Under the pieces are notes generated by a model that had not been told where the DNA came from, did no database searches, and worked only from the letters and a program-made list of their open reading frames with translations. DNA of 64,000 bases from a virus: IMG/VR virus record IMGVR_UViG_3300020166_000010. One strand, 5' to 3'. Each line of letters begins with the position of its first letter. The first letter of the stretch is position 1. Shown here in pieces: positions 3,424-53,792 of the stretch. The position numbers and the translations under genes were made by a program.

Positions 3424-3517
3424 TTAATTATATAGTAAATATAACACTTATATTTGATATAAAAAAACTTTTGTGCATTTATTTTTAGTTGAGGTCCTAT
3501 TTATAATGATTATAAAT
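3424..3517 (-). promoter_or_regulatory. early promoter cassette (leftward) with ATTTATAATnATTATAAAT palindrome
   Basis: Near-identical to cassette at 13411-13507. Confidence 0.8.
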
Positions 3518-3590
3518 TAGGAAAGTTTTCACCCTAGATTTTTTTATATGAAACTAATTGCTTATATTTACTATATAATAATTAAAACAA
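3499..3590 (+). promoter_or_regulatory. early promoter cassette (rightward), shares palindrome 3499-3517
   Basis: Palindrome + AAAGTTTTCACCCTAGATTTTTTTATAT + TATATTTACTATA. Confidence 0.8.
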
Positions 3591-3597
3591 CTACTAC

Positions 3598-3951
3598 ATG
3601 AATATCAAAATCACCGCAGACGAAGAAAGAGTTATCAAATATGCACTCGCAGACTATACTAATAACTTAGTTGGTAAGGGAATTCTATATAATACCGCTG
3701 TTGGTATCTTAAATAAGATTAACGATGCTGGTATTGTGAAGGCAGCGAGAACACCTAAGGTGCTGGTTCAGAAGCAATATATGTTCTCATTCGAGAATGG
3801 CGGATGGAACACAGTGTGGGCTAAAACACTACCTGGTGCTAAGCGTCAAGCCTTATTAGAGTATAAGGATTCTGACTTAAATGTTCGATTAGATAGTGTT
3901 CACTTAGCTACTAAGAAAGGATTAGATTCGGCAATGTCCTTATTCTACTAG
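3598..3951 (+). CDS. early hypothetical protein
   Basis: 117-aa ORF behind early promoter. Confidence 0.8.
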   Translation: MNIKITADEERVIKYALADYTNNLVGKGILYNTAVGILNKINDAGIVKAARTPKVLVQKQYMFSFENGGWNTVWAKTLPGAKRQALLEYKDSDLNVRLDSVHLATKKGLDSAMSLFY

Positions 3952-3960
3952 GGAACCCTT

Positions 3961-4045
3961 ATTTATAATCATTATAAATTAAGAAAGTTTTCACCCTAGA
4001 TTTTTTTATATCAATAATTAGTGTTATATTTAACTATAATTAAAA
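3961..4045 (+). promoter_or_regulatory. early promoter cassette with palindrome 3961-3979
   Basis: Repeat of cassette. Confidence 0.8.
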
Positions 4046-4056
4046 ACGTAATCGTT

Positions 4057-4269
4057 ATGACAAATTTCAAAAACTTATCAATTTACATCTTAGTGATTTT
4101 AGCTGGTGTAGCTATTGCTGCCTTTATTATCCCAGCTGGTATCAAACTATTTTTTAGTGGTTTACTATGGATGATGAATAATCCTGCAACAGGGTTGGTA
4201 ATCTCTATTACATTCTTAATCGGATGTTTTGTTGGTAATTTTGAAACAAAGTCTAATAAATCAGTATAA
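4057..4269 (+). CDS. small two-TM membrane protein (start revised to ATG 4057)
   Basis: Two hydrophobic segments; the GTG at 4021 lies inside the promoter. Confidence 0.75.
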   Translation: MTNFKNLSIYILVILAGVAIAAFIIPAGIKLFFSGLLWMMNNPATGLVISITFLIGCFVGNFETKSNKSV

Positions 4270-4289
4270 TAATAAATCAAACGAACATT

Positions 4290-5426
4290 ATGAGCATTCA
4301 AACTTTATCACAAACCGCGGTAGCAACAAGTAAACAAGAGAGCATCAACGCTCAATCTTTACGCCGCACCCTTCCTTTCCGAGACATTACAATGATCGAC
4401 GAGACAACCATCGAGTATAAAGGAACTCGTATCCCAATTACCAAGCAAGCTTTTAAATCCTTACTATCTCTAGTAGGTATGAGCCAGTCGTTCGCAGACA
4501 AATTCTCTAAGCTGTTTAACAAAGAGACTAAAGCGCAATTCATTAATACTATGAAAAACGCAATGGCATCTAACGCAGGTAAACTTAGCAACGTTACATT
4601 GGTTCTAAATCCAATTTCGAAAGCTGTGATCTTATTTACTAAAGAAGACAAGCTGCAAATCTCAAACGATCAAATGATCCAAGTTGCAGAGAACATGATC
4701 TCAGATAGTTCAATGGGAGTATCTAGATGGACTACGGATCCAACAACAGGTATTATCACAATCGACGCTCATAACCCTAAGGCTGAGTTTGAGATCTTAG
4801 GATTAAGTGATGAGGTCTTTACTGGAGGAGTTACATTCCGTAATAGTCCACTAAGAGGATTTGAAGTTATGCCATACGTAAATCGCCAATGGTGTACTAA
4901 TGGTCTAACAACAGCTATGGCACAAGAAGCATACCAACTACATTCTTTAGATAATAAGAGTATGGAAAGCTTTTTCGAAAACATGCAAGGTTTAAGACGT
5001 AATAACTACGCTCCTGAAGGATTTGCTGATCGAGTTCGCCAAGCTAACAACACACCTGCTTCGCTACATGAAATGTCTTTTGCACATAACTTAATTTCTA
5101 AGCATGCTGGTGAAAGAGCAGAACAATGGGTACCTCTACAAGAGAACCTCAACGAATATAATAAAGCCGGATTTGATAAATTAACTAACGATCAAATGAA
5201 GATGGCTAAAACTAACCAATCGCTTTGGTCAGTAATTAATGGAGTTACACACTTTAGTAGTCATGGTAAAGGTATCATCGACACTAACATGCAACCTCAT
5301 AATGAAGCTGATATCCAAACACGTATTGGAAACCTATTAGGCAAAAAGAGTTTTGATCACGAAAACACTATGCCAAACCCTTTTAGTAAGGAACAGCTTC
5401 AACAGACTGGAGCTCTTCTGAACTAA
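4290..5426 (+). CDS. DUF932-like protein
   Basis: 378 aa; FRNS...PYVNRQWCTNGL resembles the R-x-(V/W)-C-x-N-G motif of DUF932; SLWSVINGVT C-terminal motif. Confidence 0.6.
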   Translation: MSIQTLSQTAVATSKQESINAQSLRRTLPFRDITMIDETTIEYKGTRIPITKQAFKSLLSLVGMSQSFADKFSKLFNKETKAQFINTMKNAMASNAGKLSNVTLVLNPISKAVILFTKEDKLQISNDQMIQVAENMISDSSMGVSRWTTDPTTGIITIDAHNPKAEFEILGLSDEVFTGGVTFRNSPLRGFEVMPYVNRQWCTNGLTTAMAQEAYQLHSLDNKSMESFFENMQGLRRNNYAPEGFADRVRQANNTPASLHEMSFAHNLISKHAGERAEQWVPLQENLNEYNKAGFDKLTNDQMKMAKTNQSLWSVINGVTHFSSHGKGIIDTNMQPHNEADIQTRIGNLLGKKSFDHENTMPNPFSKEQLQQTGALLN

Positions 5427-5454
5427 TGTTTAGTTTGATTTTAATTATTATTAC

Positions 5455-5485
5455 AAAAGGCAGGCGTTGTTTCCTGCCTTTTTTT
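5455..5485 (+). terminator. Rho-independent terminator
   Basis: AAAAGGCAGG-CGTTGTTT-CCTGCCTTTTTTT. Confidence 0.85.
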
Positions 5486-5509
5486 ATACACCTCGGTCAG
5501 GGGGCCCTT

Positions 5510-5595
5510 ATTTATAATGATTATAAATTACAAAAGTTTTCACCCTAGATTTTTTTATATCAATAAAAAGTGTTATATTTAATTATAATTAAAAA
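5510..5595 (+). promoter_or_regulatory. early promoter cassette with palindrome 5510-5528
   Basis: Repeat of cassette. Confidence 0.8.
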
Positions 5596-5605
5596 ACAAA
5601 CAAAC

Positions 5606-5890
5606 ATGACTTATTCAAAAATCGTTTCCGCTATCAACAATGCTAACCTTTCAGTAGAAGAACTTTCTAAGCTGAATTCTTTCGTGGTTGATACTATTAA
5701 ATTAAAACGCAAAATGAACGGCGCTGTTATTAAGCAATCTCTATCTAGAGGTTCAATGGTAATGGTTGATCACCCTGCACACAAGAACTCTACGTTCGAG
5801 GTATTAGAAGTTCGTAGAACTAAAGCAACTATCAAAGATAGTCAAGGTCGCAGAATGAATGCACCTCTATCTATGTTGATCCCAATGTAA
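5606..5890 (+). CDS. early hypothetical protein with SH3/KOW-like C-terminus (start revised to 5606)
   Basis: GSMVMVDH...FEVLEVRRTKATI beta-barrel pattern. Confidence 0.75.
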   Translation: MTYSKIVSAINNANLSVEELSKLNSFVVDTIKLKRKMNGAVIKQSLSRGSMVMVDHPAHKNSTFEVLEVRRTKATIKDSQGRRMNAPLSMLIPM

Positions 5891-5910
5891 ATTGTCAACA
5901 ACCCGATTGC

Positions 5911-5984
5911 GGACTTATAGCTCAGCTGGTTAGAGCAGCGCACTCATAATGCGAAGGTCACAGGTTCGAACCCTGTTAGGTCCA
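5911..5984 (+). tRNA. tRNA with CAT anticodon (probably Ile2/lysidine type, otherwise Met)
   Basis: GGACTTA/TAGGTCC acceptor, TAGCTCAG D arm, CT-CAT-AA loop, GGTTCGAACC T arm. Confidence 0.9.
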
Positions 5985-5990
5985 CCCAGA

Positions 5991-6070
5991 ATTGTTAATA
6001 ACTTTTGAAAATAAGTTCACTAAAGTTTTCATATCCCACTAAAAAGGTTTATATTTACATATAACATTAA
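5991..6070 (+). promoter_or_regulatory. early promoter variant with TGTTAATAA upstream box
   Basis: TATATTTACATATAA core; same upstream box as 12873 and 59549 cassettes. Confidence 0.7.
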
Positions 6071-6081
6071 AACACCACGTA

Positions 6082-7167
6082 ATGAATCACTACACTATTA
6101 AGAAAACCAAAAACACATATACCCTAACTGAGGTACAATCAGGAACAACTCTAAACATTGGATCCACACATCCTAAATTTAACTATGTCGCTAAAGAAGA
6201 TTCTAAAGGATCTCGTATTATTAATATCAATGGCGACAAGTTCACCTCATCTAAAGATTATAGAGGTCACTATAAGAAGTCTACCCAAGCTCAAAAGCCA
6301 GCTAAGCCTCTTAATATTACCCTAACCAAGTTAGATGATTTAAATATTAATGCCAACTTATTCGTACCTATAGAGACCAATACAGTCTTTGACAAATTCG
6401 CATCTACTGCAGGTGGTATTATGCCAGGTACAAACATCATGGCGGCCGGAGCCCCAGGTGTTGGTAAAACTACGGTCCTATTAGATCTATTAAGTACTGC
6501 ACATAAGAGTGGTAAGAAGGTCCTATTCATCTCAGCTGAAATGTCTCAGATAGATATGGCCCGCTACTTACAACGCTTTCCTCACTGGGGTCAGTTGCCG
6601 ATCTTATTCCTAGCAGACTATGTGGATGAATGTCCAAAGACTGTAATCGAACAAGTCTTAAATGGAGGTTGGGATTTGGTCCTAACTGATAGCTACACTG
6701 AAGTTAACGACACCGTAAAAGAAGCTTGTAACCTAACCCGTGGTAAAGTTGAGAAATGGTTCCTAGACCTAATGATCTCAAATAACAAAGGTGTTAACAA
6801 GCCCGGAATCTACACAACCTTTATTACCATCTTGCAATTATCTAAAGGAGGTCAATTCGTCGGATCTAACAAACTAAAACACATGACCACGAGCATGATG
6901 AGCTTGGACTGGGAAGGTGGAGAAAACGCAGGTCGTAGATACATGGAATTCTCTAAAAACCGAGTAGGTGCAGTAAACAAAAAACTTTACTTTTCTTTAG
7001 AAGGCGGAGTAAGCTTTGACGAAGCCCGATACGCTAGGGATCTATTTAACGACGAGTTGGTATCTACAGAACGCAAGCAATTAGCGACGGAAGCAGATGC
7101 CTTCGACAAGTTATTCGGATTCAGTGAAGTAGATGCCGAAGACTTAGAAGCTCATATCGAAATATAA
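6082..7167 (+). CDS. RadA/Sms-like (RecA-fold) ATPase lacking Zn finger and Lon-like domain
   Basis: GGIMPG...GAPGVGKT Walker A, VLFISAEMS, LVLTDS, KGGQFVGSNKLKH, FSKNRVG. Confidence 0.8.
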   Translation: MNHYTIKKTKNTYTLTEVQSGTTLNIGSTHPKFNYVAKEDSKGSRIININGDKFTSSKDYRGHYKKSTQAQKPAKPLNITLTKLDDLNINANLFVPIETNTVFDKFASTAGGIMPGTNIMAAGAPGVGKTTVLLDLLSTAHKSGKKVLFISAEMSQIDMARYLQRFPHWGQLPILFLADYVDECPKTVIEQVLNGGWDLVLTDSYTEVNDTVKEACNLTRGKVEKWFLDLMISNNKGVNKPGIYTTFITILQLSKGGQFVGSNKLKHMTTSMMSLDWEGGENAGRRYMEFSKNRVGAVNKKLYFSLEGGVSFDEARYARDLFNDELVSTERKQLATEADAFDKLFGFSEVDAEDLEAHIEI

Positions 7168-7193
7168 GGGTCCTATTAGGATTCCTAAGCCTT

Positions 7194-7222
7194 CCTCCCG
7201 GTTATGTGGTGTTTCCGGGAGG
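7194..7222 (+). other. GC-rich 3' UTR hairpin whose loop is antisense to the radA-like leader
   Basis: CCTCCCGG-TTATGTGGTGTTT-CCGGGAGG. Confidence 0.8.
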
Positions 7223-7783
7223 TTTGGTGTATTTGGAGCATTGGGGCACCTGTATATCCTCGGACCGGTCATGGTAAAAAACGCTCCTCCGGTGTGAGCC
7301 AATTGGCGTTGGGGTTTAAGGTTCCTACAGGGACTTTACTTGGATGCTATATTTAGGGATTACTTGGGAATACCCTTGGATGGCTAGGAGAATCCTTACA
7401 AGCCTATCTAGCTTTCTTATATCTCTATTAGGTTATTATAGGAGGATGGAGTTTTAAGATCTTATATACCTATACCTATATCTCTATTACTAGGATCCGT
7501 ATTACTTGGATAGTTGTTTGCCTTATCTTGCTTGTCTCTTCTTAGATCTCTTATATCTTTCTTTCTTTTCTTATTCTTCTTGTTGGGATTCTTATTCTTA
7601 TCTCTTCTTTGTTATCTATTATGATTGATTCTTTTGGTCACGTGCGAGGGTCCATTTTACAAGAATCTTTGCACGCTCGGGTGGTTTGTAGTGTGGTCGG
7701 TCAAAAGGATTGATATTCTACAGGTTTTTAGGATCGGGTTCTTAAGGAGTGAGCCTATATATACCTCTTCTTTTTGTCACCTT

Positions 7784-7872
7784 ATTTGGAATGATTATAA
7801 ATTACAAAAGTTTTCACCCTAGATTTTTTTATATCAATAATTAGTGTTATATTTACTATATAATAATTAAAA
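7784..7872 (+). promoter_or_regulatory. early promoter cassette with degenerate palindrome 7784-7802
   Basis: ATTTGGAATGATTATAAAT + cassette. Confidence 0.8.
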
Positions 7873-7883
7873 CAACTACACTC

Positions 7884-8261
7884 ATGCCTTACATTACTAA
7901 AGATCAAGTTTCTCAAAAAAGAAAAGAATTAAAAGCTGCCTTACCTGACTATAAGCTATCTATTACTACTGAACATTATTCTGGTATTAAGGTTGCTATC
8001 ATGGCAGGTCCTACTGATTTTGGAACTGAATACTCTCAACTAAATCCTCATCATGATTATCGAGGAGAAACTTGGAACCGCTATACTGAAGAATACGATT
8101 CTAACCCTCCTATCCAAGATGTTCTAGATATTATTATGCCTATTCTAAATGAAGGCAAAGGAGAGGGTCATGAAGATGGAGATTACGGTATGATTCCTGA
8201 TTATTATACTTGGGTTCATATTGGTAAATGGGATAAAGCTTATGAAATTAAAACTAAATAA
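7884..8261 (+). CDS. LPD29-like early protein
   Basis: ELKAALPDYKLSITTEHYSGIKVAI and C-terminal D-rich/YY-x-V-x-IGKW pattern. Confidence 0.55.
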   Translation: MPYITKDQVSQKRKELKAALPDYKLSITTEHYSGIKVAIMAGPTDFGTEYSQLNPHHDYRGETWNRYTEEYDSNPPIQDVLDIIMPILNEGKGEGHEDGDYGMIPDYYTWVHIGKWDKAYEIKTK

Positions 8262-8262
8262 T

Positions 8263-8490
8263 ATGACAAACGAAAACACAGGATATCTTCCACAAATCGC
8301 ATTCAATCTAGTAGATGAAAATAGAACTACACTTGAGTATTTTATTAATAAACATATTGAAGAGTTTGGAAAGTTTTCATCCTCTGATCTAATGTGGATC
8401 TTTGATGCTTCTGCTAGTATTAAAAGAACCCGAGCTCAGGAAACTAATGAATGGAATGACAGCCTTAATATTGAATCTTATACACTTTAA
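8263..8490 (+). CDS. hypothetical protein (start revised to 8263)
   Basis: ATG immediately after upstream stop. Confidence 0.7.
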   Translation: MTNENTGYLPQIAFNLVDENRTTLEYFINKHIEEFGKFSSSDLMWIFDASASIKRTRAQETNEWNDSLNIESYTL

Positions 8491-8494
8491 AATT

Positions 8495-8782
8495 ATGAAA
8501 ACAAAAGAATTAATTTGGAAATTAGAATCTACTATCTATTTATTAGATGAGATTGTTTTAAACTATCGATCTGAAGATTGGAATATGTTAAAAGCTCGCA
8601 TTGCTGATCATATTGGAGTCACTAAAGGCTCGGTTAATATGGCTATAGGAAATCTAAAGTGGATTTTATCTGATGGCTCTGAAGGCCTCTCTGCTTATAC
8701 TGTTCGTCAGGAGGAAGCGGTTAGACTTACTTTAGAGAAATATGAATTAAGTAAGCAAAAACTTTTAATGATACTATCTTAA
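8495..8782 (+). CDS. hypothetical protein, possible HTH (start revised to 8495)
   Basis: IADHIGVTKGSVNMAI HTH-like segment. Confidence 0.65.
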   Translation: MKTKELIWKLESTIYLLDEIVLNYRSEDWNMLKARIADHIGVTKGSVNMAIGNLKWILSDGSEGLSAYTVRQEEAVRLTLEKYELSKQKLLMILS

Positions 8783-8791
8783 TTATTAAAC

Positions 8792-9850
8792 ATGAAAATT
8801 AAATTTATTATAATCGCATTTTTTGTAGCAGCTACATGTAATGCACAGAAAACCCTTGTATCTGACATCACAGATGTAGATCTAAGTAATACAGAGCAAT
8901 CAGGATATGTTAATTGGGATTTCACCAATAATACAACCGGATATGCCTGGACCTGGGGAGCACCTGGAATGCTAGTCTATGGAGATGCGCCTGAAATGTG
9001 CTTGGACATAGAAGCTGAAATTAAAAACATATCTCACGTATGGGGAGCTGGTATCTCTATTGGAGTAGATGAATCCTCAACAAACAGTGAACTAAAGTAT
9101 AATGGCATTAATAACTATTATTTATCAGTAGAAGACGATGTTGTTGGATTATTTAGAGGAACCAATAACACACAAGAAGATTTCATGGCTGATACACTAG
9201 CATACGTCGGTGTGACAATTGATCAAACTGAATGGTATAAATTAAGATTAAAAATAGAAGCAGATACGATATATGGATATGTTAACGATGTTCTATACAT
9301 TAACCATAAGGTAGATAGTATACAAAAGAACGGTAAGTTTGCTATAGTATCTTCTAATAGTGAAAATACATATAAGAATATAAAAGCAAGATATCACAAA
9401 GATCCATACTATATTAGTAGTGATACTATTGTAGAATTTGTAAGTGATGTTAATCACCCAGAATGGAATAACTTACCTGTCACTCGATTAGATAGTGTTG
9501 AAACTGTAGTAGAAGCCGATGGATTAGATCATTTCATAAGCCATTATATACAATATAAAGAATCTGAATCAATTAATATAGGAGATGATGATTGTGATTG
9601 CATTTGCCCAGCAGTAACTACCCTATCGATATATCCAAATCCAGTATCTGAATATATTAACGTAAGTATACAACAGCCTGAAGGAACACTCAAGGTTTAT
9701 AGCATGCATGGATCATCTGTTAAATCCTATGATTTAAAATATGGAATTAATAGAATAGATATGACAAGATATCCAATAGGACATTATTTATTCAAAGTAG
9801 AATACGAAGGAAGAAAGGCATTAATAGAAAAGATAATAGTAACTCATTAA
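8792..9850 (+). CDS. secreted protein with T9SS type A C-terminal sorting domain
   Basis: Sec signal (CNA-Q), beta-sandwich core, C-terminal LSIYPNPVSEYINV...KVYSMHG...IDMTRYPIGHYLFKV...KIIV. Confidence 0.85.
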   Translation: MKIKFIIIAFFVAATCNAQKTLVSDITDVDLSNTEQSGYVNWDFTNNTTGYAWTWGAPGMLVYGDAPEMCLDIEAEIKNISHVWGAGISIGVDESSTNSELKYNGINNYYLSVEDDVVGLFRGTNNTQEDFMADTLAYVGVTIDQTEWYKLRLKIEADTIYGYVNDVLYINHKVDSIQKNGKFAIVSSNSENTYKNIKARYHKDPYYISSDTIVEFVSDVNHPEWNNLPVTRLDSVETVVEADGLDHFISHYIQYKESESINIGDDDCDCICPAVTTLSIYPNPVSEYINVSIQQPEGTLKVYSMHGSSVKSYDLKYGINRIDMTRYPIGHYLFKVEYEGRKALIEKIIVTH

Positions 9851-9856
9851 ATATTT

Positions 9857-10450
9857 ATGATAATATACGTTGCACCCCCTCGAGGGATTCAAGAAAAACA
9901 AGATTGCTTTAATTGGCTAACACAATATGGACATGAAGTTGTTTGGTTAGATTTAAGACGTAAAGTCAAAGGCCCTCTACTCTTATGTGGAGGCGCTGAT
10001 ATCGGTAAAGATCAAGAACGCGATGATCGAGAAAAGATTTGGATTAAACAAACCCTTGCTGATGGATATCCTATTATTGGTCTTTGTCGAGGCATGCAAG
10101 TTTTAAACTCTTATTTTGGAGGTGTTGTTGAAGATCTTAGCGATCGTATAGTAGAAGATCATAAAGCTGCTGATTTTTCAGAAAATATTGACCACAGTGG
10201 AAAACCTTCACAATTTCACACAGTAGAAGATTTACATGGTAAATTAATAAACGTTAATTCTCGACACCATCAACATTGTTCAGTAATAGCAGACAATTTC
10301 AAGGCCACTCATCTTTCATATCCTTTATATTCTGTAATAGAAGGTTTTGAAGATATTGATCAAAAGATTTGGGCAGTGCAGTGGCATCCTGAAAAAATGG
10401 AATCCGAAGATAATGAATACCCTTTAAATAAACTAATTAATTTAAAATAA
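9857..10450 (+). CDS. class I glutamine amidotransferase, peptidase C26 (PuuD-like)
   Basis: LLLCGGADI, GLCRGMQVLN, VNSRHHQ, AVQWHPE. Confidence 0.9.
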   Translation: MIIYVAPPRGIQEKQDCFNWLTQYGHEVVWLDLRRKVKGPLLLCGGADIGKDQERDDREKIWIKQTLADGYPIIGLCRGMQVLNSYFGGVVEDLSDRIVEDHKAADFSENIDHSGKPSQFHTVEDLHGKLINVNSRHHQHCSVIADNFKATHLSYPLYSVIEGFEDIDQKIWAVQWHPEKMESEDNEYPLNKLINLK

Positions 10451-10704
10451 TGGACCAAAACATGATACTAAGATCTGGCAAATATCAAGGATATACTGTC
10501 AGAGAAGCTTATCGAAAAGACCCTTCATATATTAGATGGGTTATTGAAAATGTACCGGCAATGCTAAAGAGCCACGGCCCTAGTAAAAAAGCTAAAGTAG
10601 TAGAAGCTCGTAAACCATTTGAATATAAGCAACCACCTGATGTTGAAAAGACTATAGAAAATGGTTGGATTCCACCTGGCAGTGTAGAAGATGCATTTTT
10701 TTGA
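10450..10704 (+). CDS. small protein with GKY-x-G motif (DUF3820/ExoX C-terminal-like)
   Basis: LRSGKYQGYTVREAYRKDPSYIRWV. Confidence 0.6.
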   Translation: MDQNMILRSGKYQGYTVREAYRKDPSYIRWVIENVPAMLKSHGPSKKAKVVEARKPFEYKQPPDVEKTIENGWIPPGSVEDAFF

Positions 10705-10720
10705 AAATAAATGAATTTTT

Positions 10721-10788
10721 GTGAAAATAAATGCATAAAAGTTTTTTTATCCCAATAAAAAGTGTTATATTTAATTATAATTAAAAAA
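10721..10788 (+). promoter_or_regulatory. early promoter core (no palindrome)
   Basis: AAAATAAATGCATAAAAGTTTTTTTAT...GTGTTATATTTAATTATAAT. Confidence 0.75.
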
Positions 10789-10797
10789 GCAATAGAC

Positions 10798-11130
10798 ATG
10801 AACAAATTAGAAACATTAGGATTAGTTGAAATAACTTCAAAAACTCAAAAGAAAAACGGTACAAGATGCTTTTACGATCCAATCGCTGATTGCGATTATC
10901 TAAGTTATGAAAGTGGATATGTTCGTAGAGCTTATACTAAAGCTACTCACTACTCTTCTAGACTACACCGAACAATTTATCAATTAAACCTCAAGGGTCG
11001 TGGTTACTACAAAAGCCAATACAGCGATAAAATCTACGAAACAACCGTTCGTTTAATGATTCCAAGTGAACAAGCTAGACTTGATCGACTTGCTAAGTGT
11101 GTTGTTATTTATAGAAAAAATAAACTTTAA
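10798..11130 (+). CDS. early hypothetical protein (start revised to 10798)
   Basis: ATG after promoter; YLSYESGYVRR motif. Confidence 0.75.
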   Translation: MNKLETLGLVEITSKTQKKNGTRCFYDPIADCDYLSYESGYVRRAYTKATHYSSRLHRTIYQLNLKGRGYYKSQYSDKIYETTVRLMIPSEQARLDRLAKCVVIYRKNKL

Positions 11131-11131
11131 T

Positions 11132-11218
11132 ATGATACTTGAATGGATTATAGTAGGCTCTATTCTAATAGCATGGAATGCCTTTCTAATTATTAAAATG
11201 CGTAAAGAAGATAAATAG
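11132..11218 (+). CDS. 28-aa single-TM peptide
   Basis: MILEWIIVGSILIAWNAFLIIKMRKEDK fills intergenic gap. Confidence 0.5.
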   Translation: MILEWIIVGSILIAWNAFLIIKMRKEDK

Positions 11219-11225
11219 ATTAACA

Positions 11226-12755
11226 ATGAATTTTATAGAAGAGATCATCGAGAGTGGAGACACATCTAATTTAATGTTTAGATTTCCTCCAGAACCTAAT
11301 GGACACCTACACTTAGGACATGCCAAAGCAATTTGTCTTAATTTTGATTTAGCACACAAATATAAAACAGGGTGCAATCTTAGATTTGACGATACTAATC
11401 CATTGGCAGAGTCTACTGTATTTGCAGATTCTATCATGGAAGATGTTGCTTGGCTTGGATATAGACCTACCGAAGTCGAAGAAACTAGTAACTATTTTAA
11501 ATTTATACAAAGATGTGCTAGTCAATTGATTATACAAGGTGATGCATACATGGATGATTCAACATCCGAAGAGATTGCTGAATTAAAAGGAGATCTTGAA
11601 AATCCAGGATCCGATTCGCCATATCGCAATAGAACGATTGCAGAAAATTTAGAAGAATTTAGAAAGCTATGTGAAGGCAGTATCAAAACTGTTTTGAGAG
11701 CTAAAATCGACATGGCAGATCCTAATCTATTAATGAGAGATCCTGTTATCTATAGATCTATTGATGCCCCTCACCATAACACAGGCACGGACTTTAAAGC
11801 GTATCCTATGTATGATTTTGCACATCCTATTTCAGATTGGAAAGAAGACATCACACATTCATTATGTACTTTAGAATTTGAAGCGCATCGACCTTTTTAT
11901 AATTGGACTCTTGATAAATTATTCGATACTAGTGTCTTTGGTCCTAATCCTCGTCAAATTGAATTCTCAAGATTAAATGTACAAGGGTTTACTTTAAGTA
12001 AAAGATATTTAAAAGAACTTGTAGAAGAAGGAGTTGTTGATGGATGGGACGATCCTCGCATGCCAACATTGAAAGGATTAAAGCGTCGTGGATTTACTCC
12101 AGATGCTATTAGAAACTTTTGTGAAAAGGTTGGAATCTCTAAAAGAGAATCTCAAATTGAGAGATCTTTATTAGATGGATGTTTACGTGATGATTTAAAT
12201 AAGATTTCAGAACGCAGAATGGTAGTCAAAGATCCAATTAAACTAACAATTGTTGGTGATTTTAAACCAGGATTTGCTGCTCTTGAAAATAATCCAGAAT
12301 CATCTATAATATCAGCTCGTAAAGTAAATTACTCTGAACAATTCTGGATTGAACGAGAAGACTTTAGAGTAAGTGCCAATAAGAAATATAAAAGACTAAA
12401 ACTCGGAGATAATGTTAGACTAAAGGGTGTTTGTATTGTAAAGGCGGTTGATTACACTGAAATAGATGGTATAATCACTGAAGTGTTTTGTGAACATTAT
12501 CCTGATAGTTTTTCAGGAATGAAAACAGATGTAAAAGCGAAAGGAACAATACATTGGGTAAATAGAGATGAAGCAGTTGAAATTAAATTAAACCACTTTG
12601 ATGGATTAGATAAAGGAACAATTTCAGCGTTTGGAGAACCTTTATTGAGGCTAGAATACGAAAAACCAGTACAATTCGTTCGACATGGCTACTATATGAA
12701 AGATGGGGACAGTTGGAACCATTCAGTATCTTTAAAAAGTAGTTATAATGGGTGA
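11226..12755 (+). CDS. glnS: glutamine--tRNA ligase
   Basis: RFPPEPNGHLHLGHAKAI, CNLRFDDTNP, YPMYDFAH, ITHSLCTLEF, LSKR, GWDDPRMPT. Confidence 0.95.
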   Translation: MNFIEEIIESGDTSNLMFRFPPEPNGHLHLGHAKAICLNFDLAHKYKTGCNLRFDDTNPLAESTVFADSIMEDVAWLGYRPTEVEETSNYFKFIQRCASQLIIQGDAYMDDSTSEEIAELKGDLENPGSDSPYRNRTIAENLEEFRKLCEGSIKTVLRAKIDMADPNLLMRDPVIYRSIDAPHHNTGTDFKAYPMYDFAHPISDWKEDITHSLCTLEFEAHRPFYNWTLDKLFDTSVFGPNPRQIEFSRLNVQGFTLSKRYLKELVEEGVVDGWDDPRMPTLKGLKRRGFTPDAIRNFCEKVGISKRESQIERSLLDGCLRDDLNKISERRMVVKDPIKLTIVGDFKPGFAALENNPESSIISARKVNYSEQFWIEREDFRVSANKKYKRLKLGDNVRLKGVCIVKAVDYTEIDGIITEVFCEHYPDSFSGMKTDVKAKGTIHWVNRDEAVEIKLNHFDGLDKGTISAFGEPLLRLEYEKPVQFVRHGYYMKDGDSWNHSVSLKSSYNG

Positions 12756-12761
12756 TCCTTT

Positions 12762-12770
12762 AGATATATA
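12762..12770 (+). promoter_or_regulatory. class III motif AGATATATA
   Basis: Precedes 27-aa TM ORF. Confidence 0.5.
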
Positions 12771-12790
12771 AAGAAAACAGACAAAAAGCC

Positions 12791-12874
12791 ATGATAATAT
12801 TTTGCATTGTATTCTTAGCCGTTAGCTTCGTAATTGGAGTTAACATGCTATTAGAATCTAGAAATCGTAAGTAA
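12791..12874 (+). CDS. 27-aa single-TM peptide
   Basis: MIIFCIVFLAVSFVIGVNMLLESRNRK with own promoter motif and A-rich leader. Confidence 0.5.
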   Translation: MIIFCIVFLAVSFVIGVNMLLESRNRK

Positions 12875-12955
12875 TTGTTAATAACTTTTTTAAAATAAGT
12901 GAGTCAGGATTTTCCTGGTTCACTTTTTTTGGTTATATTTATACTATAATTAAAA
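12873..12955 (+). repeat. 83-bp early promoter cassette with stem-loop, identical copy at 59549-59631 (inverted)
   Basis: Base-by-base identity; internal AAGTGA..CAGGA-TTT-TCCTG..TCACTT. Confidence 0.9.
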
Positions 12956-12965
12956 GATAATTAAC

Positions 12966-13397
12966 ATGGCAATACCTAAAATTTACAAGTACGGAATCGA
13001 AATCACAAAGCCCTGGTCTTCTGAGATGTACGATTTTAACGAAAACATCAAAGAATACTATCAAGATCAAATCAAAGATCTGATAAACTCCCTCAAAACA
13101 ACAGAAGATTGTAATTTTATCGCTGGAATAGTAAATCCATACAGATATGGAATAGGAACTTCCGATGATATTGAGTACATGAAGTCAGATATGATTAAGA
13201 ACATTGAGAATGCTGAAAGCCACTGGATGAAAGAGGTTATTGAAGAACTTTTGATCTTACAGAGAATTTACCCTATGATTTGTGAAGCTACTCCAGAAAT
13301 GCCAGCAATTTCTCTATATGATTTAGGAATTCCAATGAACATTATTGGGTTTGAAACTCGCGATGAGATCTTACTTTTGCGCGAAAGATATTCTTAA
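12966..13397 (+). CDS. early hypothetical protein
   Basis: 143-aa ORF after cassette. Confidence 0.8.
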   Translation: MAIPKIYKYGIEITKPWSSEMYDFNENIKEYYQDQIKDLINSLKTTEDCNFIAGIVNPYRYGIGTSDDIEYMKSDMIKNIENAESHWMKEVIEELLILQRIYPMICEATPEMPAISLYDLGIPMNIIGFETRDEILLLRERYS

Positions 13398-13410
13398 AGC
13401 ATTAATTCTT

Positions 13411-13507
13411 ATTTATAATCATTATAAATAGGACCTCAACCCAAAATAAATGCACAAAAGTTTTTTTATATCAATAAAAAGTGTTATATTTAACTATAAT
13501 TAAAAAA
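13411..13507 (+). promoter_or_regulatory. early promoter cassette with palindrome 13411-13429
   Basis: Near-identical to 3424-3517 (-). Confidence 0.8.
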
Positions 13508-13515
13508 CAAACAAT

Positions 13516-13896
13516 ATGTCAATCAACACAGTTTTAGTTCACACACAGTACGAAGAGAATTACGGGTTTCATGAAGGTAACTTCCATTGGAAGCCTAAAG
13601 GCAGTCACACATTTCAGATCGAGATGGATGCAGATCATATGTTTTATTCTGACCCTGCTAAAGTTTTCAGCAAGATGTTAGAGAAGCACAATTCAGATCT
13701 TGAAAGATTCACGTATGTCGATCATGATATTCAGTTTCATTCACCTACTATTCTTGGTAATCAAGATGATTATATTAAGGCTAATCAATCAATAACGGAT
13801 CAAGAAGATATTCAAGATTTTGAAGAAGTTAATCACGTTATTGCTGGTGTCGATTTCTCAGATAGTATTAATCAATTAAATAACCTTAAACTATAA
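13516..13896 (+). CDS. early hypothetical protein
   Basis: HTQYEENYG...HWKPKG motif; follows cassette. Confidence 0.8.
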   Translation: MSINTVLVHTQYEENYGFHEGNFHWKPKGSHTFQIEMDADHMFYSDPAKVFSKMLEKHNSDLERFTYVDHDIQFHSPTILGNQDDYIKANQSITDQEDIQDFEEVNHVIAGVDFSDSINQLNNLKL

Positions 13897-14001
13897 ATTT
13901 ATGAAAACTCCTAAACAATTAAGAGACAGTTATCGAATGGTCGGATTCAGTATGGTCGGACTTGTAATTATTTTAATATCCCTAATAATTTTTGAAAATA
14001 T

Positions 14002-14226
14002 ATGTCAGTAGAAACTTTATATGCAATACCAAGTGTTAATTGCTTTATTAACGATGATTTGATTGTATATCCAATGAATGATCGAAGTGAACCAGATTTA
14101 AGCCAATGGAATGAGCTTGAAAATCTAACATCAGAATTCGTTAATAAATTAAACACAGAAGACGATTCCCTTATCTCAGAACTAATATACTGGAAAGTTA
14201 GATTTTCAGAAAATATAAACAACTAA
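14002..14226 (+). CDS. hypothetical protein
   Basis: ORF in operon. Confidence 0.65.
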   Translation: MSVETLYAIPSVNCFINDDLIVYPMNDRSEPDLSQWNELENLTSEFVNKLNTEDDSLISELIYWKVRFSENINN

Positions 14227-14236
14227 AAAATAAAAA

Positions 14237-14458
14237 ATGAAAGTACCTAATTTTGAAATAGCATTATCTGAAACAGCAACTCTCGTAGAAATCGCTGGTT
14301 ATATTTTCGATAATTATAATAATGATCCACAATTTATTGCAGCACTCCGCGATGATAGCCAACCATGGCCAGATGGAGTACAAGAAGTCCTAGATGCTCA
14401 CGATGTTTTAGTAGAAGAATTAATTGATTCGCTAGAACTATACATCCAAACGTGCTAG
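14237..14458 (+). CDS. acidic hypothetical protein
   Basis: ORF in operon; last + strand gene. Confidence 0.65.
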   Translation: MKVPNFEIALSETATLVEIAGYIFDNYNNDPQFIAALRDDSQPWPDGVQEVLDAHDVLVEELIDSLELYIQTC

Positions 14459-14459
14459 A

Positions 14460-14894
14460 TTAATTACAAATTAATTTTACTCTATTCTCCGCGTCAATTT
14501 CCCACAATCTGGATTTATATGACGTGGAGAAGGGGTATTTGGTACCTTTCCAAATAAAATATCCTTTCTCTGTCTTTAGATCTCCACTATAAATTTGATA
14601 AACGTGCACTAATTCGTGCATTAAGGTTTTTTCTAATTGGTTGTCATCCCACATTGGGTTTAGATCAACTATAAACCAACCACTCGAAAGCTCTCGGGTG
14701 AGTCCTACAATCCTAGGATAAAGAGGTGCGTATTTTATTATAACTACAGGTTGTGTGAAGAGAGGGCCCTTAAACATCTCACTACAAATCTGTGAAGTGG
14801 CGCTTGTAATGTGTTTTTCTAGTCCTGCATCTGGTTTTAAAATTTGTCCGCTAACTTGTAATGAAAAAAGAATTGCGATAATAAATCTCCACAT
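14460..14894 (-). CDS. exported HExxH metallopeptidase-like protein
   Basis: Signal peptide; TLMHELVHVYQ; WEIDA. Confidence 0.75.
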   Translation of the reverse strand: MWRFIIAILFSLQVSGQILKPDAGLEKHITSATSQICSEMFKGPLFTQPVVIIKYAPLYPRIVGLTRELSSGWFIVDLNPMWDDNQLEKTLMHELVHVYQIYSGDLKTEKGYFIWKGTKYPFSTSYKSRLWEIDAENRVKLICN

Positions 14895-14896
14895 GT

Positions 14897-15352
14897 TTAT
14901 TTGTATATTTTTAATTTTTTTATCGAATATAATATACTATGTGTTACGAAAAAGCCGACTGCAACTGTTTCAAACCAAAACAACGTGATCAATGGTATTA
15001 GAAAGGCAGCACTGACAACGGGGATCGCTAAATAATTAAAACGCTTGTCCTTAAATATGGTATATGTTGTGTATAAGAAAAATAAGGCCGCAAATGTATT
15101 GTGAGTCCATTCGTAATCAAATGTATTAAACAAAGCAACACCAAATAAGAGAATACCTGAGATGATATTATCACTTATAATGTAACTTATGCCTATTAAT
15201 AATAAACTAATCAATAAAATATAAGTTGCTTCTGATTCATGGTATACGCTGTATGAATACTTTATAGTTCCAGTTTTAAGATATAAAGCAAGAGGTAAGA
15301 ATAACGCTGCAGCGGAACAAATTAAGTTAATAAATATACCTAGTCTTTTCAA
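14897..15352 (-). CDS. multi-TM membrane protein
   Basis: Five to six hydrophobic segments; HNTFAALFF. Confidence 0.75.
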   Translation of the reverse strand: MKRLGIFINLICSAAALFLPLALYLKTGTIKYSYSVYHESEATYILLISLLLIGISYIISDNIISGILLFGVALFNTFDYEWTHNTFAALFFLYTTYTIFKDKRFNYLAIPVVSAAFLIPLITLFWFETVAVGFFVTHSILYSIKKLKIYK

Positions 15353-47353: not shown

Positions 47354-48664
47354 TTAGAAATTTCTATTTGTTTCGTAAATTGCCTTGATCACTGGAAATC
47401 TTAAGGAATATCCTCCCTGTAAGTTTTCAGTTTCTTCAAAATACTGAACTGTGATTGTTTTACCAATAATTTCTTCAGGGTTTTTAAAGTATTTTCTACG
47501 TTGTTCTTGAGAAAATCCGCTACCAACCTGAACCTGACATCCTTTGTGTTCAATGATAACATTCTTTAACATTTCCTCTTCAACCTCTTTACCTTCAACA
47601 ATTACTCTATTGATTGAGTTTTCAACGCCAATTACTAAATATTCAGCATCAACAAAGGTTTTAATCTTTAAAATATCTGAAGATCTTTTACCTTTATAAA
47701 TTTCATTCTTACGAATCATTAAACCTTCCCATCCGTATTTGTTAGCTTTAGCGATTTGATCTTCTAATTGCTGATCATCTTCTACAACCTCTTGACGAGT
47801 CATCGTGATATAATTATTAAAGGATTTCATGTAAATATCCATGAATGCGTCGAGTGCTTCATATCTTTTACTTAATATATTTCTTGATGTTCCAGAATCA
47901 AAATTCTCTGGGGTCAATATATCAAAAGTAATTAATCTTGGAAAATCGATAGTGTGGTTTTTACGACCTATTTCCTTAATGATACTTTGAAAGTCCTCAT
48001 CTCCTTTTTTATTTAAGATACAAATTTCTCCATCTAATACTACGTTCTTTGCACCTGAATCTTTAATCACTTGAGCAATCTTGCCTAAAGTTTTGAATTC
48101 ATTACCGGCTCTAGAGTAGAATTTAGCATCACTATTTCCATCAATGATACAAATACATCTTACACCATCTAATTTACGGCTAACATACCAGCCATCGTCC
48201 CAGTTTACTTTCTTTTTAGTCTTATCGTTATAAGTATCTGCTAAAGCAACATCAAAGGTTGGTATCAATCCTGGTACTACCTTGTTAATCGTGGTCGCTG
48301 TTGTTCTGGTTTTGAGGTTTCCATCAATAATATTCCAAATGATGTCCTCGTATTGTTTGTTTTCTAATACGAACCTGTTTACGTTTGCAATTGAATTATG
48401 TCCAGTAGTTACTCTATTATCTAAATCATCAAGTAAACTAAAGAAATCCCAATAAGTATTTGGATGACCGAGTAGGTCGCTCTTCTTTTTACAGTTCTTT
48501 GAAGTTACATAATATTGTTTATAAGGATCGTATGTGTATAACAAGGCCTTACGAACTACTTCGTATTGTGTGTATGTTTTTAATACTTCTAGTTTTTCCG
48601 TGTTTGAATTTGAAGAATTTGAAGCTTCAATGAAATCGTAAATTAATTGAAAGTCTGTACGCAT
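47354..48664 (-). CDS. ATP-dependent DNA ligase
   Basis: SRKLDGVR, VLDGE, WEGLMIR, YKGKRS, VGSGFS, SLRFP. Confidence 0.95.
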   Translation of the reverse strand: MRTDFQLIYDFIEASNSSNSNTEKLEVLKTYTQYEVVRKALLYTYDPYKQYYVTSKNCKKKSDLLGHPNTYWDFFSLLDDLDNRVTTGHNSIANVNRFVLENKQYEDIIWNIIDGNLKTRTTATTINKVVPGLIPTFDVALADTYNDKTKKKVNWDDGWYVSRKLDGVRCICIIDGNSDAKFYSRAGNEFKTLGKIAQVIKDSGAKNVVLDGEICILNKKGDEDFQSIIKEIGRKNHTIDFPRLITFDILTPENFDSGTSRNILSKRYEALDAFMDIYMKSFNNYITMTRQEVVEDDQQLEDQIAKANKYGWEGLMIRKNEIYKGKRSSDILKIKTFVDAEYLVIGVENSINRVIVEGKEVEEEMLKNVIIEHKGCQVQVGSGFSQEQRRKYFKNPEEIIGKTITVQYFEETENLQGGYSLRFPVIKAIYETNRNF

Positions 48665-48674: not shown

Positions 48675-48722
48675 TTTGATTATATAGTAAATATAACACT
48701 TTTATTTGATATAAAAAAATAT
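48675..48722 (-). promoter_or_regulatory. early promoter core for ligase
   Basis: TTTTTTTATATCAAATAAAAGTGTTATATTTACTATATAAT. Confidence 0.75.
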
Positions 48723-49284: not shown

Positions 49285-49293
49285 AAACTTAAA

Positions 49294-49851: not shown

Positions 49852-49855
49852 ATGT

Positions 49856-49981
49856 TTATTTTAATTTCATGTCTTTGCAAGTACATTCTCCATCCTCATT
49901 CCATTCTCCACAGCATTCTTTCTTGGCAGAGGATTTCTCTTCATTCCACATATCATCCCAGTATACAAAATCATTCTGCAT
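49856..49981 (-). CDS. 41-aa Cys/Trp-rich peptide
   Basis: Manual translation MQNDFVYWDDMWNEE...CCGEWNEDGECTCK; fills gap. Confidence 0.5.
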   Translation of the reverse strand: MQNDFVYWDDMWNEEKSSAKKECCGEWNEDGECTCKDMKLK

Positions 49982-50198: not shown

Positions 50199-50200
50199 AA

Positions 50201-50512: not shown

Positions 50513-50553
50513 AACTGTTTATTTAAATATTATATAATTATTTATAGATTTGT

Positions 50554-51339: not shown

Positions 51340-51350
51340 ATTGATTTATT

Positions 51351-51857: not shown

Positions 51858-51882
51858 TATCTTTTATGTATGTAATTAATAA

Positions 51883-51959
51883 TGGTGAACCAGGTAGGAT
51901 TCGAACCTACGACCGTCGCCTTAGAAGGGCGATGCTCTATCCAGCTGAGCTACTAGTCC
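51883..51959 (-). tRNA. tRNA-Arg(TCT)
   Basis: Full cloverleaf, CT-TCT-AA, encoded CCA. Confidence 0.95.
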
Positions 51960-51968
51960 AATAAAATC

Positions 51969-52064
51969 GAGGGGCTTCACTCCTTTAGCGCGCTTGCAGC
52001 ATCAGAGTCCCAACCAAAGCTATCCGTCGATAGTTCCCTTTGGATTTTATGTTTAACTCCCCTC
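51969..52064 (-). ncRNA. unclassified structured RNA between tRNA-Glu and tRNA-Arg
   Basis: GAGGGG/CCCCTC closing stem; CCAAAG..CTATC-GACG-GATAG-CTTTGG; ACTCT/GGAGT. Confidence 0.65.
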
Positions 52065-52066
52065 TT

Positions 52067-52141
52067 TGGTAGCCCGTAAGAGAATCGAACTCTTATTTTA
52101 CGGATGAAAACCGCATGTCCTAACCGTTAGACGAACGGGCC
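52067..52141 (-). tRNA. tRNA-Glu(TTC)
   Basis: Full cloverleaf, TT-TTC-AT, encoded CCA. Confidence 0.95.
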
Positions 52142-52189
52142 AAATTTGAATTCCAGTATGTAAAGAACATTTAATTCGTTATTCTTTAT

Positions 52190-52216
52190 TTATACTTGAA
52201 TTTTAAATAAAGTTTC
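52190..52216 (-). promoter_or_regulatory. class II promoter for tRNA-Glu/ncRNA/tRNA-Arg, followed by boxA-like GTTCTTTA
   Basis: GAAAC-N17-TATAA. Confidence 0.75.
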
Positions 52217-52298
52217 CAAAAGATTACACAATATCTAACATAGTTCAAATCTCTTAGCTACCCAACCATATTTATCTGACACTATTTTAATTATAATA

Positions 52299-53045
52299 CT
52301 AGAACAGCGGTTCATTAATTTTAGAAAGCCTCTCTATTGTTATATTATATGCGCCTTCCCCTATATCACATCCAATATATTGTCTATTCAATTCTTTAGC
52401 CGCTACTAAAGTAGTTCCAGATCCCATATAAAAATCTGCAACGATATCTCCTTCATTGCTACTAGACTTTACAATTCTTTTTAATAATTCTAAAGGCTTT
52501 TGAGTAGCATATCCAACTCTTTCTTTTTTATCATTCTGGCCTAAAATATTTATATTCCAAACGTCTCCTATAATTTTACCATCTTCGTGATAATACTTTT
52601 CTTTAGCATAACCACGCGGTGCTGATTCTGAATATGGTTCACGTATGGGGTTAAATGTAAAATTGTCTGTTTTAGAATATCTAAATATAGTATCGTGTCT
52701 GCTTCCAAAACAATTCTTTTTTCTAGGAGCTGAATTATATTGCCAAATAATTTCATTTCTAAAATTATTCCAACCAAAAATATCATCTAAAATACATCTA
52801 ATCCAATGGTTTATTCTCCAATCCATTTGTATGTAAATCTGTCCAGTATCTTTAAGAACTCTTTTCATTTCTAAAAATCTACTTATATAGTGTTCTTCTA
52901 TTTCTGATTTAATAGGTTTAAGATCCTGATAATCTTCAAAATTCCTACCAGTTCCATACAATATATCACAATAGATTAAATCTATAGAAGATTCTTCTAA
53001 TCTCTTTAATACTTTTAAGTTGTCCTCACAAAATATATTATCCAT
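52299..53045 (-). CDS. beta-class N6/N4 DNA methyltransferase
   Basis: IDLIYCDILY (DPPY variant), FRNEIIW, YATQKPLELL, VADFYMGSGTT. Confidence 0.88.
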   Translation of the reverse strand: MDNIFCEDNLKVLKRLEESSIDLIYCDILYGTGRNFEDYQDLKPIKSEIEEHYISRFLEMKRVLKDTGQIYIQMDWRINHWIRCILDDIFGWNNFRNEIIWQYNSAPRKKNCFGSRHDTIFRYSKTDNFTFNPIREPYSESAPRGYAKEKYYHEDGKIIGDVWNINILGQNDKKERVGYATQKPLELLKRIVKSSSNEGDIVADFYMGSGTTLVAAKELNRQYIGCDIGEGAYNITIERLSKINEPLF

Positions 53046-53074
53046 AATTGTTTATTTTTATATATTTAAATATA

Positions 53075-53686
53075 TTAAGACCAAATTTCCATCATTTTTC
53101 GAGTCTTCACTATTTGTTTATTATAGAACAAATTTATATTTTGTTTCAATAAATCACACCATTCTTTTTCATCAACATTTTCATTCATTAGCATTTTTTT
53201 ATTAGCATTTTTTATTTGGATTTGACCTTTACCAATTGCTCCAATCCCTAAAATATCCCAATGAAATTGATAAATGTTTATTATTTTTACTTCTACAATT
53301 TCTACAACATCACCATTTCTCGTATAATCTATAAAAATATATGATAACTCTACGTTTTTTTGAGTTAAAACCTTTCTTCGTAAAACATCTACGGAAATTA
53401 AATTAGGCATAGAAAATCCATTCTTTTGTATGTGGTGTGTTTTAACATCATACATAAATCTAATATCGCCATCTTGTACAGAAAGGTCATCACAACTTTT
53501 TTTACCACTAGCACCTATGAATGCATCACCAAATTTAAGTTTAACGATATCTATAACCTTAGCCTCTACTATATCTCCAATTGTTCGCTGCCCGAGATCA
53601 GAATTAACATTAAATCTTTTTTCTATAGAAGTCTCTATAGTTGCTCTTAATTCTCTGTTAAATTTTAATACTTTTTTAGTTTCCAT
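53075..53686 (-). CDS. putative type II restriction endonuclease (HincII-like)
   Basis: QRTIGDIVE..CDD..YDVKT..SMPNLISV..GQIQ; directly upstream of MTase. Confidence 0.6.
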   Translation of the reverse strand: METKKVLKFNRELRATIETSIEKRFNVNSDLGQRTIGDIVEAKVIDIVKLKFGDAFIGASGKKSCDDLSVQDGDIRFMYDVKTHHIQKNGFSMPNLISVDVLRRKVLTQKNVELSYIFIDYTRNGDVVEIVEVKIINIYQFHWDILGIGAIGKGQIQIKNANKKMLMNENVDEKEWCDLLKQNINLFYNKQIVKTRKMMEIWS

Positions 53687-53696
53687 TATATTGTTT

Positions 53697-53792
53697 GTTT
53701 TTAATTATAGTTAAATATAACACTTTTTATTGAAACAAAAAAATCTAGGGCATTTATTTTCACAGAAAGTCCTATTTATAATGATTATAGAT
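53697..53792 (-). promoter_or_regulatory. early promoter cassette with palindrome 53774-53792
   Basis: ATTTATAATGATTATAGAT + CCCTAGATTTTTTT + GTGTTATATTTAACTATAAT. Confidence 0.8.

Follow-up and report, generated by a model that had tools for sequence, protein, structure and literature searches.

A palindrome like Fur and PerR operators at fixed helical phases upstream of putative early promoters in a marine Bacteroidota phage

Which protein reads a short palindrome that recurs upstream of phage promoters, and what does its binding do? The question is raised by a 64,000-nucleotide stretch of DNA (IMG/VR record IMGVR_UViG_3300020166_000010), the whole of which we call the window. It is a portion of the genome of a large uncultured marine Bacteroidota phage. 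A preliminary description of the window had proposed that a host protein of the Fur/PerR family binds the palindrome on a fixed face of the DNA, which could couple early transcription to the iron or peroxide status of the host. On balance we favour the reading that a host Fur site is used at the phage early promoters in the manner of a class-I activator site, the binding being a prediction. In this way the phage probably ties its first genes to the iron state of its host.

The box and its promoters in the window

The box is a 19-mer, ATTTATAAT-s-ATTATAAAT, with exact copies at 3499-3517, 3961-3979, 5510-5528 and 13411-13429. There is a copy with one mismatch at 53774-53792 and one with two mismatches at 7784-7802. 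When up to three mismatches are allowed the window contains nine matches, where 0.61 are expected, and none of 100 shuffled sequences reaches nine. The four exact sites have the geometry of a Fur-family operator, an AT-rich inverted repeat of the 7-1-7 or 9-1-9 type. A role of the palindrome as a hairpin or terminator was dropped, as its arms are pure A/T, its centre is a single nucleotide (nt) and it lies upstream of promoters and not after genes.

The distance from the centre of the box to the first T of the core promoter element TATATTTA takes few values. It is 55 nt at 3563, 4025, 5574 and 7848 on the plus strand, 65 nt at 3443 on the minus strand and at 13485 on the plus strand, and 64 nt at 53719 on the minus strand. 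The 19-mer search and these distances reproduce the positions and spacings given in the preliminary description, including the claim that one box serves two divergent promoters. This is the exact box at 3499-3517. It lies 65 nt from the -7 box TATATTTA of a leftward promoter (3436-3443, minus strand), which drives an ORFan of 152 amino acids (2942-3400), and 55 nt from the -7 box of a rightward promoter (3563-3570, plus strand), which drives an ORFan of 117 amino acids (3598-3951). Atlas look-ups with these two divergent ORFans yielded nothing usable.

The other three exact boxes each serve one promoter on the plus strand. The box at 3961-3979 is 55 nt from the -7 box at 4025-4032, which is followed by genes at 4057-4269 and 4290-5426. 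The box at 5510-5528 is 55 nt from the -7 box at 5574-5581, followed by a gene at 5606-5890 and tRNA-Met (5911-5986), and that at 13411-13429 is 65 nt from the -7 box at 13485-13492, followed by genes at 13516-13896, 14002-14226 and 14237-14458. The box with two mismatches (7784-7802), which contains a ATTTGGAAT half-site, is 55 nt from the -7 box at 7848-7855 (plus strand). The operon behind it (7884-10704) encodes LPD29, a protein with a type IX secretion system (T9SS) tail, a GATase/peptidase C26 protein and an ExoX-like C protein. The box with one mismatch (53774-53792) is 64 nt from the -7 box at 53712-53719 (minus strand), which is followed by an ORFan (53075-53686) and a DNA methylase (52299-53045).

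The core promoter contains a T-run in place of the Bacteroidota -33 TTTG, then TATATTTA, and the start codon is 31-44 nt further on. TATATTTA matches the Bacteroidota -7 box TAnnTTTG at seven of eight positions, which bears out the likeness pointed out earlier. The box-bearing promoters drive small ORFans, and no family was found for those genes. The gene content fits early transcription by the host polymerase, and it is the gene content that suggests the timing.

Each box marks the upstream end of a promoter module, 100-130 nt long, that is repeated in the window with only two spacer types. The difference between 55 and 65 nt within the window is therefore one comparison and not seven independent events.

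Helical phasing in other phages and in Bacteroidota chromosomes

The exact 21-mer YTATTTATAATSATTATAAAT is found in 98 IMG/VR stretches, of which only about 15 are related to the window. Most of the remaining stretches again have it upstream of a canonical TAnnTTTG box. For the analysis of phasing we used 140 oriented flanks of unrelated viral contigs, from which near-identical flanks had been dropped. This set leaves out the relatives of the window, whose -7 box ends in A, and it is therefore independent evidence for helical phasing. In these flanks TAnnTTTG starts 42-46 nt (11 cases), 52-56 nt (12 cases) or 65-67 nt (16 cases) from the box centre, with a Rayleigh R of 0.77 at a period of 10.5-11 (p<5e-5). 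The spacing on a fixed face, with positions one helical turn apart, thus extends from the window to clusters in unrelated viral contigs.

When up to two mismatches are allowed, each of five unrelated phage genomes, two of which are rated complete, contains between five and nine boxes, compared with none for a reversed control. Several unrelated phage genomes have two or three copies of the perfect 19-mer apiece. The first genes behind 44 unrelated phage promoters are unrelated small ORFans, and no protein cluster among them is larger than two.

The bacterial genomes in which the 21-mer is found are mainly of two kinds, Firmicutes and Bacteroidota. In Bacteroidota its neighbours, named with Pfam and NCBIfam, are NqrA, glutamyl-tRNA reductase (hemA), ferrochelatase (hemH), FeoAB, an IscA-type protein and NuoA. 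Further neighbours are class I and class II fumarase, Fur-family genes, an ECF sigma factor, RseC and SdhC. The host motif thus marks genes of iron homeostasis and fur itself. In Firmicutes the 21-mer flanks open reading frames (ORFs) that were read, from their N-termini only, as dpr, katA, ahpC, sodA, hemA and perR, which would be the classical PerR targets. The 21-mer also stands directly before ORFs with Fur-family-like N-termini, again by reading of the N-terminus only, at L186, L207 and L216 and in two Chloroflexota genomes, L104 and L112. A Fur-family site of this sequence may therefore be common to distant phyla.

Two samples of 101 Flavobacteriaceae genomes were searched. The first is comprised of G006, which was chosen for its exact box, and 100 genomes drawn evenly from the family. 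The motif ATTTAKAATNATTMTAAAT occurs at up to one mismatch in 97 of these 101 genomes, at about 2.7 per genome compared with about 0.4 for the reversed control. Loci were obtained for 30 of the boxes, and these flank genes for ActA-type multihaem cytochrome c (5), nqrA (4), hemA (4), COX3 (2), TonB plug genes (2) and a ferredoxin. Motif comparison with the Fur/PerR regulons of Flavobacteriaceae had been suggested as a check on the preliminary description; in Bacteroidota chromosomes the box is at iron, haem, respiratory and fur genes. At the four hemA loci the box is about 170 nt away from hemA itself but only 21-34 nt away from the start of a divergently oriented gene for an AraC-family regulator; this conserved gene pair may form a haem control unit.

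The second sample contains G006 and 100 other genomes drawn at random. The exact 19-mer was not found in these 100 others, G006 being its sole holder. A 3.3-Mb Winogradskyella genome has the exact 19-mer once, compared with four times in the 64-kb window. The phage boxes are idealised, in that they fit the palindrome better than almost any host site.

Two layouts are seen in the hosts. In genes for iron-rich proteins, which we call user genes, the -7 box is 43-46, 53-56, 64-67 or 75-77 nt from the box centre. This far and phased layout is present at nqrA, hemA, sdhC, ActA cytochrome c and fumarase. The systems served are Na+-NQR, alternative complex III, succinate dehydrogenase, fumarase and haem synthesis. 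Boxes that overlap the promoter are seen at feoAB, ECF sigma, TonB-type and fur genes; for the first three classes the offset is 16-37, or the distance to the ATG is 17-51 nt. The pattern of two layouts is what a regulator active under ample iron would give, repressing uptake and helping the users. The steps of the far boxes in the hosts are the steps seen in the phages, and the phage promoters copy the user layout. An upstream site at whole helical-turn steps, as is typical of class-I spacing, is thus found in the window, in unrelated phages and at host user genes.

The boxes of the window lie within repeated modules of two types, and the palindrome might for that reason be a functionless by-product of the duplication of promoter modules. 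We regard this as highly improbable. The box and the core promoter are the only sequences common to both spacer types, which makes the box the sole common block upstream of the core, and the sequence to the left of the box is unrelated between copies. The same box and the same phasing are present in unrelated phages and in host chromosomes, and both the phasing and the counts across 101 genomes contradict a by-product.

The candidate binding protein

The palindrome contains the Per box TTATAATNATTATAA exactly, in agreement with the earlier claim; this is the Per box of Bacillus subtilis PerR (PMC3953959). The predicted Fur box of Riemerella anatipestifer is ATTTAGAATTATTCTAAAT, and purified Fur shifted promoter fragments holding such boxes (PMC5609570). 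The phage box is identical to ATTTAGAATTATTCTAAAT at 17 of 19 positions, with one difference per half-site. The box thus matches experimentally supported consensus sequences of Fur-family operators, the Per box exactly and the R. anatipestifer box at 17 of 19 positions. The half-sites ATTTAGAAT and ATTTATAAT are mixed within single boxes, both in hosts and in phages. Since the G and T half-sites are combined in this way, one protein probably reads both.

The R. anatipestifer box is a close relative in structure and setting. It is also a 19-bp AT-rich palindrome of the 9-1-9 type, and it is found with iron-uptake genes and Bacteroidota -33/-7 promoters. The phage copies differ from it in being the perfect T-variant, in their position far upstream of promoters and in their presence on a virus. 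The R. anatipestifer boxes are described only as lying within 100 bp of the start codons of Fur-repressed genes (PMC5609570).

The Per box of B. subtilis has an identical 15-bp core (PMC3953959), whereas the Bacteroidota neighbours of the box are genes of iron, haem and respiration and the single Fur-family protein that was compared is nearer to Fur. This protein is the product of the only Fur-family gene in Winogradskyella sp. HB-48, a genome whose nqrA is preceded by an exact box. Among proteins of solved structure it is most similar to Fur (4RAZ, 2e-21), and PerR (2FE3) is matched at only 1e-13. Catalase, AhpC and Dps are not among the annotated proteins flanking Bacteroidota boxes, a partial and partly hand-picked set. 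The combination expected of a PerR regulon, sites at peroxide-defence genes together with a PerR-type sensor, is thus not seen in this partial set and the Winogradskyella homologue.

We consider it rather unlikely that a PerR-type protein or another Fur-family paralogue binds the box, such that the phage would read oxidative stress or haem and not iron. The exact-box genome, with its one Fur-family gene nearer to Fur than to PerR, and the Bacteroidota flanks without catalase, AhpC or Dps argue against it. In favour of it are the exact Per box in the T-variant and the Firmicutes copies of the 21-mer, which are at PerR-like targets as far as N-termini can be read. The four Bacteroidota genomes tested have between one and three Fur-family genes each, and the two or three in each of Polaribacter, Flavobacterium and Putridiphycobacter also speak for a paralogue, as does the iron response of user genes that persists in the R. 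anatipestifer fur mutant (PMC5609570).

The Fur-family regulator Irr gives this alternative further support. Irr is reported only from alpha-proteobacteria and acts at low iron, and its effect depends on the position of the site (PMC1698941). Its iron control element, TTTAGAA-N3-TTCTAAA, is contained exactly in the G-variant of the host box, and its regulon of hemA, sdh, nuo, acnA, fumA, suf and cytochrome genes is similar (PMC1698941). However, Irr sites overlap at users and are upstream at uptake genes, which is the reverse of the Bacteroidota layout.

A binder outside the Fur family appears slightly less probable again. It could be a host regulator of respiration or a phage protein, and the likeness to a Fur box would be a coincidence. 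The genes beside the phage boxes are ORFans with no assigned fold, and the hemA boxes of hosts are beside a divergent gene for an AraC-type regulator, which are both points for such a protein. Against it, core host promoters in several orders of Bacteroidota have the box, as do dozens of unrelated phages with no downstream gene in common. The box is also found at feoAB, TonB-receptor and fur genes, and R. anatipestifer Fur shifted fragments with a near-identical box. For a repressor encoded by the phage in particular, no candidate emerges: the neighbouring genes have no family, and the box occurs in host chromosomes and across those dozens of phages.

The phages themselves appear not to supply a Fur protein. 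No Fur family was seen in the window, either among the Pfam families listed (the first 25 of 52) or in other family searches, and PF01475 has no match in ten phage contigs, two of which are rated 100% complete. The preliminary description was right on this point as far as the families listed go. Its proposal of a host Fur/PerR-family binder on a fixed face gains comparative support, with one refinement: the Winogradskyella protein and the flanking genes suggest that Fur proper is the likelier binder.

Proposed action of the box and its setting in the phage

In the reading we favour, a Fur-family regulator of the host, most likely Fur itself, would bind the palindrome, and the phage would recruit it at seven early promoters of the host type (sigma-A, -33/-7). 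On the assumption of a start site 11-12 nt downstream from the first T in the -7 box, the box centres are at about -66 and about -76. A Fur dimer would then be placed as class-I activators are, upstream of RNA polymerase and always on the same helical face. Iron-loaded Fur would boost early transcription of the phage, and early expression would follow the iron state of the host. We infer both the identity of the binder and the positive effect, from the observed sequence and phasing of the box and its occurrence in hosts and phages.

Class I CRP-dependent promoters have their sites at -61.5, -71.5 and -82.5. There an upstream dimer site works only at helical-turn steps, a feature that the phage boxes would share. 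The protein family and the type of promoter are different, and the positions in the phage are relative to an assumed start. Regulators of host nutrition are known to act on phage genes, including Pho boxes and NtcA sites in cyanophages, Fur at stx1 of Stx phages and DtxR at tox of corynephage beta. In these cases too the site of a host metabolic sensor is on phage DNA and phage expression follows the nutrient status of the host. They concern single auxiliary or toxin genes, whereas here there are sets of early promoters, in many unrelated phages, at fixed helical phases.

A precedent for both layouts is Fur of Caulobacter. It activates sdhCDAB, nuoA-N and acnA from sites upstream of the -35 element, whereas its sites at the genes that it represses, feoAB and those of TonB receptors, overlap the promoter (PMC2724300). 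The same paper cites direct Fur activation of norB, nuoA and pan1 in Neisseria meningitidis (PMC2724300). As in Caulobacter, the boxes described here are upstream at iron-using enzymes and overlapping at feoAB and TonB receptors, and the gene classes are the same. The three phasing steps of about 10.5 bp are absent from those reports, and here it is viruses that use the layout, with activation as the predicted outcome.

Several points weigh against activation by Fur. Many Bacteroidota have two or three Fur-family genes, and the binder could be one of the paralogues. In a fur mutant of R. anatipestifer, iron restriction still lowers the expression of sdhCAB and of fumarase, aconitase, nuoG and cytochrome genes (PMC5609570, Table 2). 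The same genes are not significantly lower in the fur mutant with iron; only three are lower, and only without iron (PMC5609570). Since this iron response persists in the mutant, Fur-dependent activation of user genes is not established in Flavobacteriales.

Four copies of the same core promoter also have no box, and with four promoters of the same class lacking it the box is at most a modulator. On the plus strand, the promoter at 6050-6057 drives a KaiC/DnaB/RecA-like ATPase (6082-7167), and that at 10766-10773 drives a gene at 10798-11130 and the class-I Glu/Gln tRNA synthetase (11226-12755). On the minus strand, the promoter at 48688-48695 drives an ATP-dependent DNA ligase (47354-48664) and that at 63942-63949 drives a phage sigma factor (63318-63905). 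The DNA-ligase promoter of the related contigs L039 (5188-5208) and L059 has an exact box at 65 nt; its counterpart in the window has none. Comparison of these sequences indicates that boxes are gained or lost at homologous promoters.

An alternative that we regard as unlikely, though less so than a different binder, is that the same host Fur-family protein binds without activating. The boxes would then either reduce the activity of the early promoters, perhaps by keeping the polymerase from an upstream contact, or mainly titrate Fur. In the titration variant Fur would be soaked up and the iron-uptake genes of the host would be switched on during infection. The idealised sites suit a sink, the perfect 19-mer being absent from 100 Flavobacteriaceae genomes and present four times in the window. 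The iron-dependent dioxygenases of the window and the R. anatipestifer data, in which Fur does not clearly activate user genes, are also consistent with this alternative. If the boxes were a sink and nothing else, their distance from the promoter and their face of the helix would not matter, yet 40 of 42 phage spacings are in three clusters about 10.5 nt apart. Furthermore, the host classes that are repressed (feoAB, TonB receptors and ECF sigma) have overlapping boxes and not boxes far upstream. Titration of Fur by the idealised sites is a live candidate for a secondary or alternative role. Activation and titration may also be combined, and we put forward tentatively, as something possible, that the perfect and helix-phased Fur boxes are a convergent 'iron gate' on the early promoters of many unrelated marine Bacteroidota phages. 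In such a gate iron-loaded Fur would be recruited as a class-I-type activator by sites superior to any of the host, infection would begin in dependence on host iron, and the idealised sites would also draw Fur off host promoters.

The early region has been detected in marine metagenome runs from at least 11 studies. Metatranscriptome contigs from four runs, compared with 2000-15000, span the early genes, and some start at the gene starts 3597, 4059, 10797 and 12964. One runs across the 3499 box; such contigs give neither starts nor strands, and DNA was possibly present. A 175-kb IMG/VR contig is a relative of the window with 91% identity, and its completeness is rated 66%. A weak box-like sequence with three mismatches (767-785) is centred 23 nt upstream of the start codon of the Clp-like AAA+ gene (1-753, minus strand), which is an overlapping position, and relatives with 91% identity retain it.

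No cultured phage matched the region 3000-14000 in a Megablast search. A tblastn search with the DNA ligase gave only relatives in Bacillus phages, at about 32%, and no cultured relative was found. A search with the promoter module gave only weak matches to the core promoter, every one of them in a Bacteroidota phage (Tenacibaculum pT24, Chryseobacterium MA9V-2 and Phocaeicola phages). As laboratory models pT24 and MA9V-2 were rejected, because they have only boxes with two mismatches, at near control level. The tRNA synthetase at 11226-12755 (plus strand) is about 50% identical to its counterpart in every Flavobacteriaceae genome tried and thus points to no host genus.

The window has 11 tRNA genes (at 5911, 51883-52141 and 56347-57766) and also encodes thymidylate synthase, methylases and the Clp-like AAA+ protein. 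The protein at 8792-9850 (plus strand), part of which is lectin/hydrolase-like, ends in a T9SS sorting domain (Por_Secre_tail), which suggests that it is exported through the type IX system of the host. The factor encoded at 63318-63905 (minus strand), behind a box-less early promoter, belongs to the sigma-70 family, with regions 2 and 4 (PHROG 'RNA polymerase sigma factor'), and probably turns on later genes. The iron-dependent dioxygenases are PhyH (55091-55807, minus strand) and a 2OG-Fe(II) oxygenase ORF. Two flavodoxin-fold proteins and a thioredoxin are also among the products of the window. It is possible that these proteins and the dioxygenases are demands of the phage on the iron and redox supply of the host.

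Repeats account for two regions of the minus strand. Between 19047 and 24882 are two very long ORFs (991 and 947 amino acids) of 9-nt periodic repeats with collagen-like Gly-X-Y runs, in a region with GC content up to 0.42-0.46 and strong skew. A giant ORF of 1968 amino acids (32673-38579) contains about 13 tandem copies of a 108-nt (36 amino acid) unit at 34995-36806.

In our literature searches we met no earlier account of Fur-type boxes at the early promoters of phages, and nothing specific on a model for Fur activation in Bacteroidota. The phage modules are short and strong and exist with and without the box, which makes them ready-made test promoters. Growth is limited by iron over large areas of the ocean, where much of the algal carbon is degraded by Flavobacteriia. 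If phages read the Fur state of the host at their first promoters, iron supply would directly set the start of infection, a link that is so far correlative. The iron gate, if true, would connect the production of viruses directly, at the molecular level, with iron limitation in the ocean. The hosts themselves seem to have Fur-type boxes in front of their respiratory and haem operons, at three helical phases. This phasing would imply direct positive control by a Fur-family protein, in a phylum in which iron regulation has been little studied.

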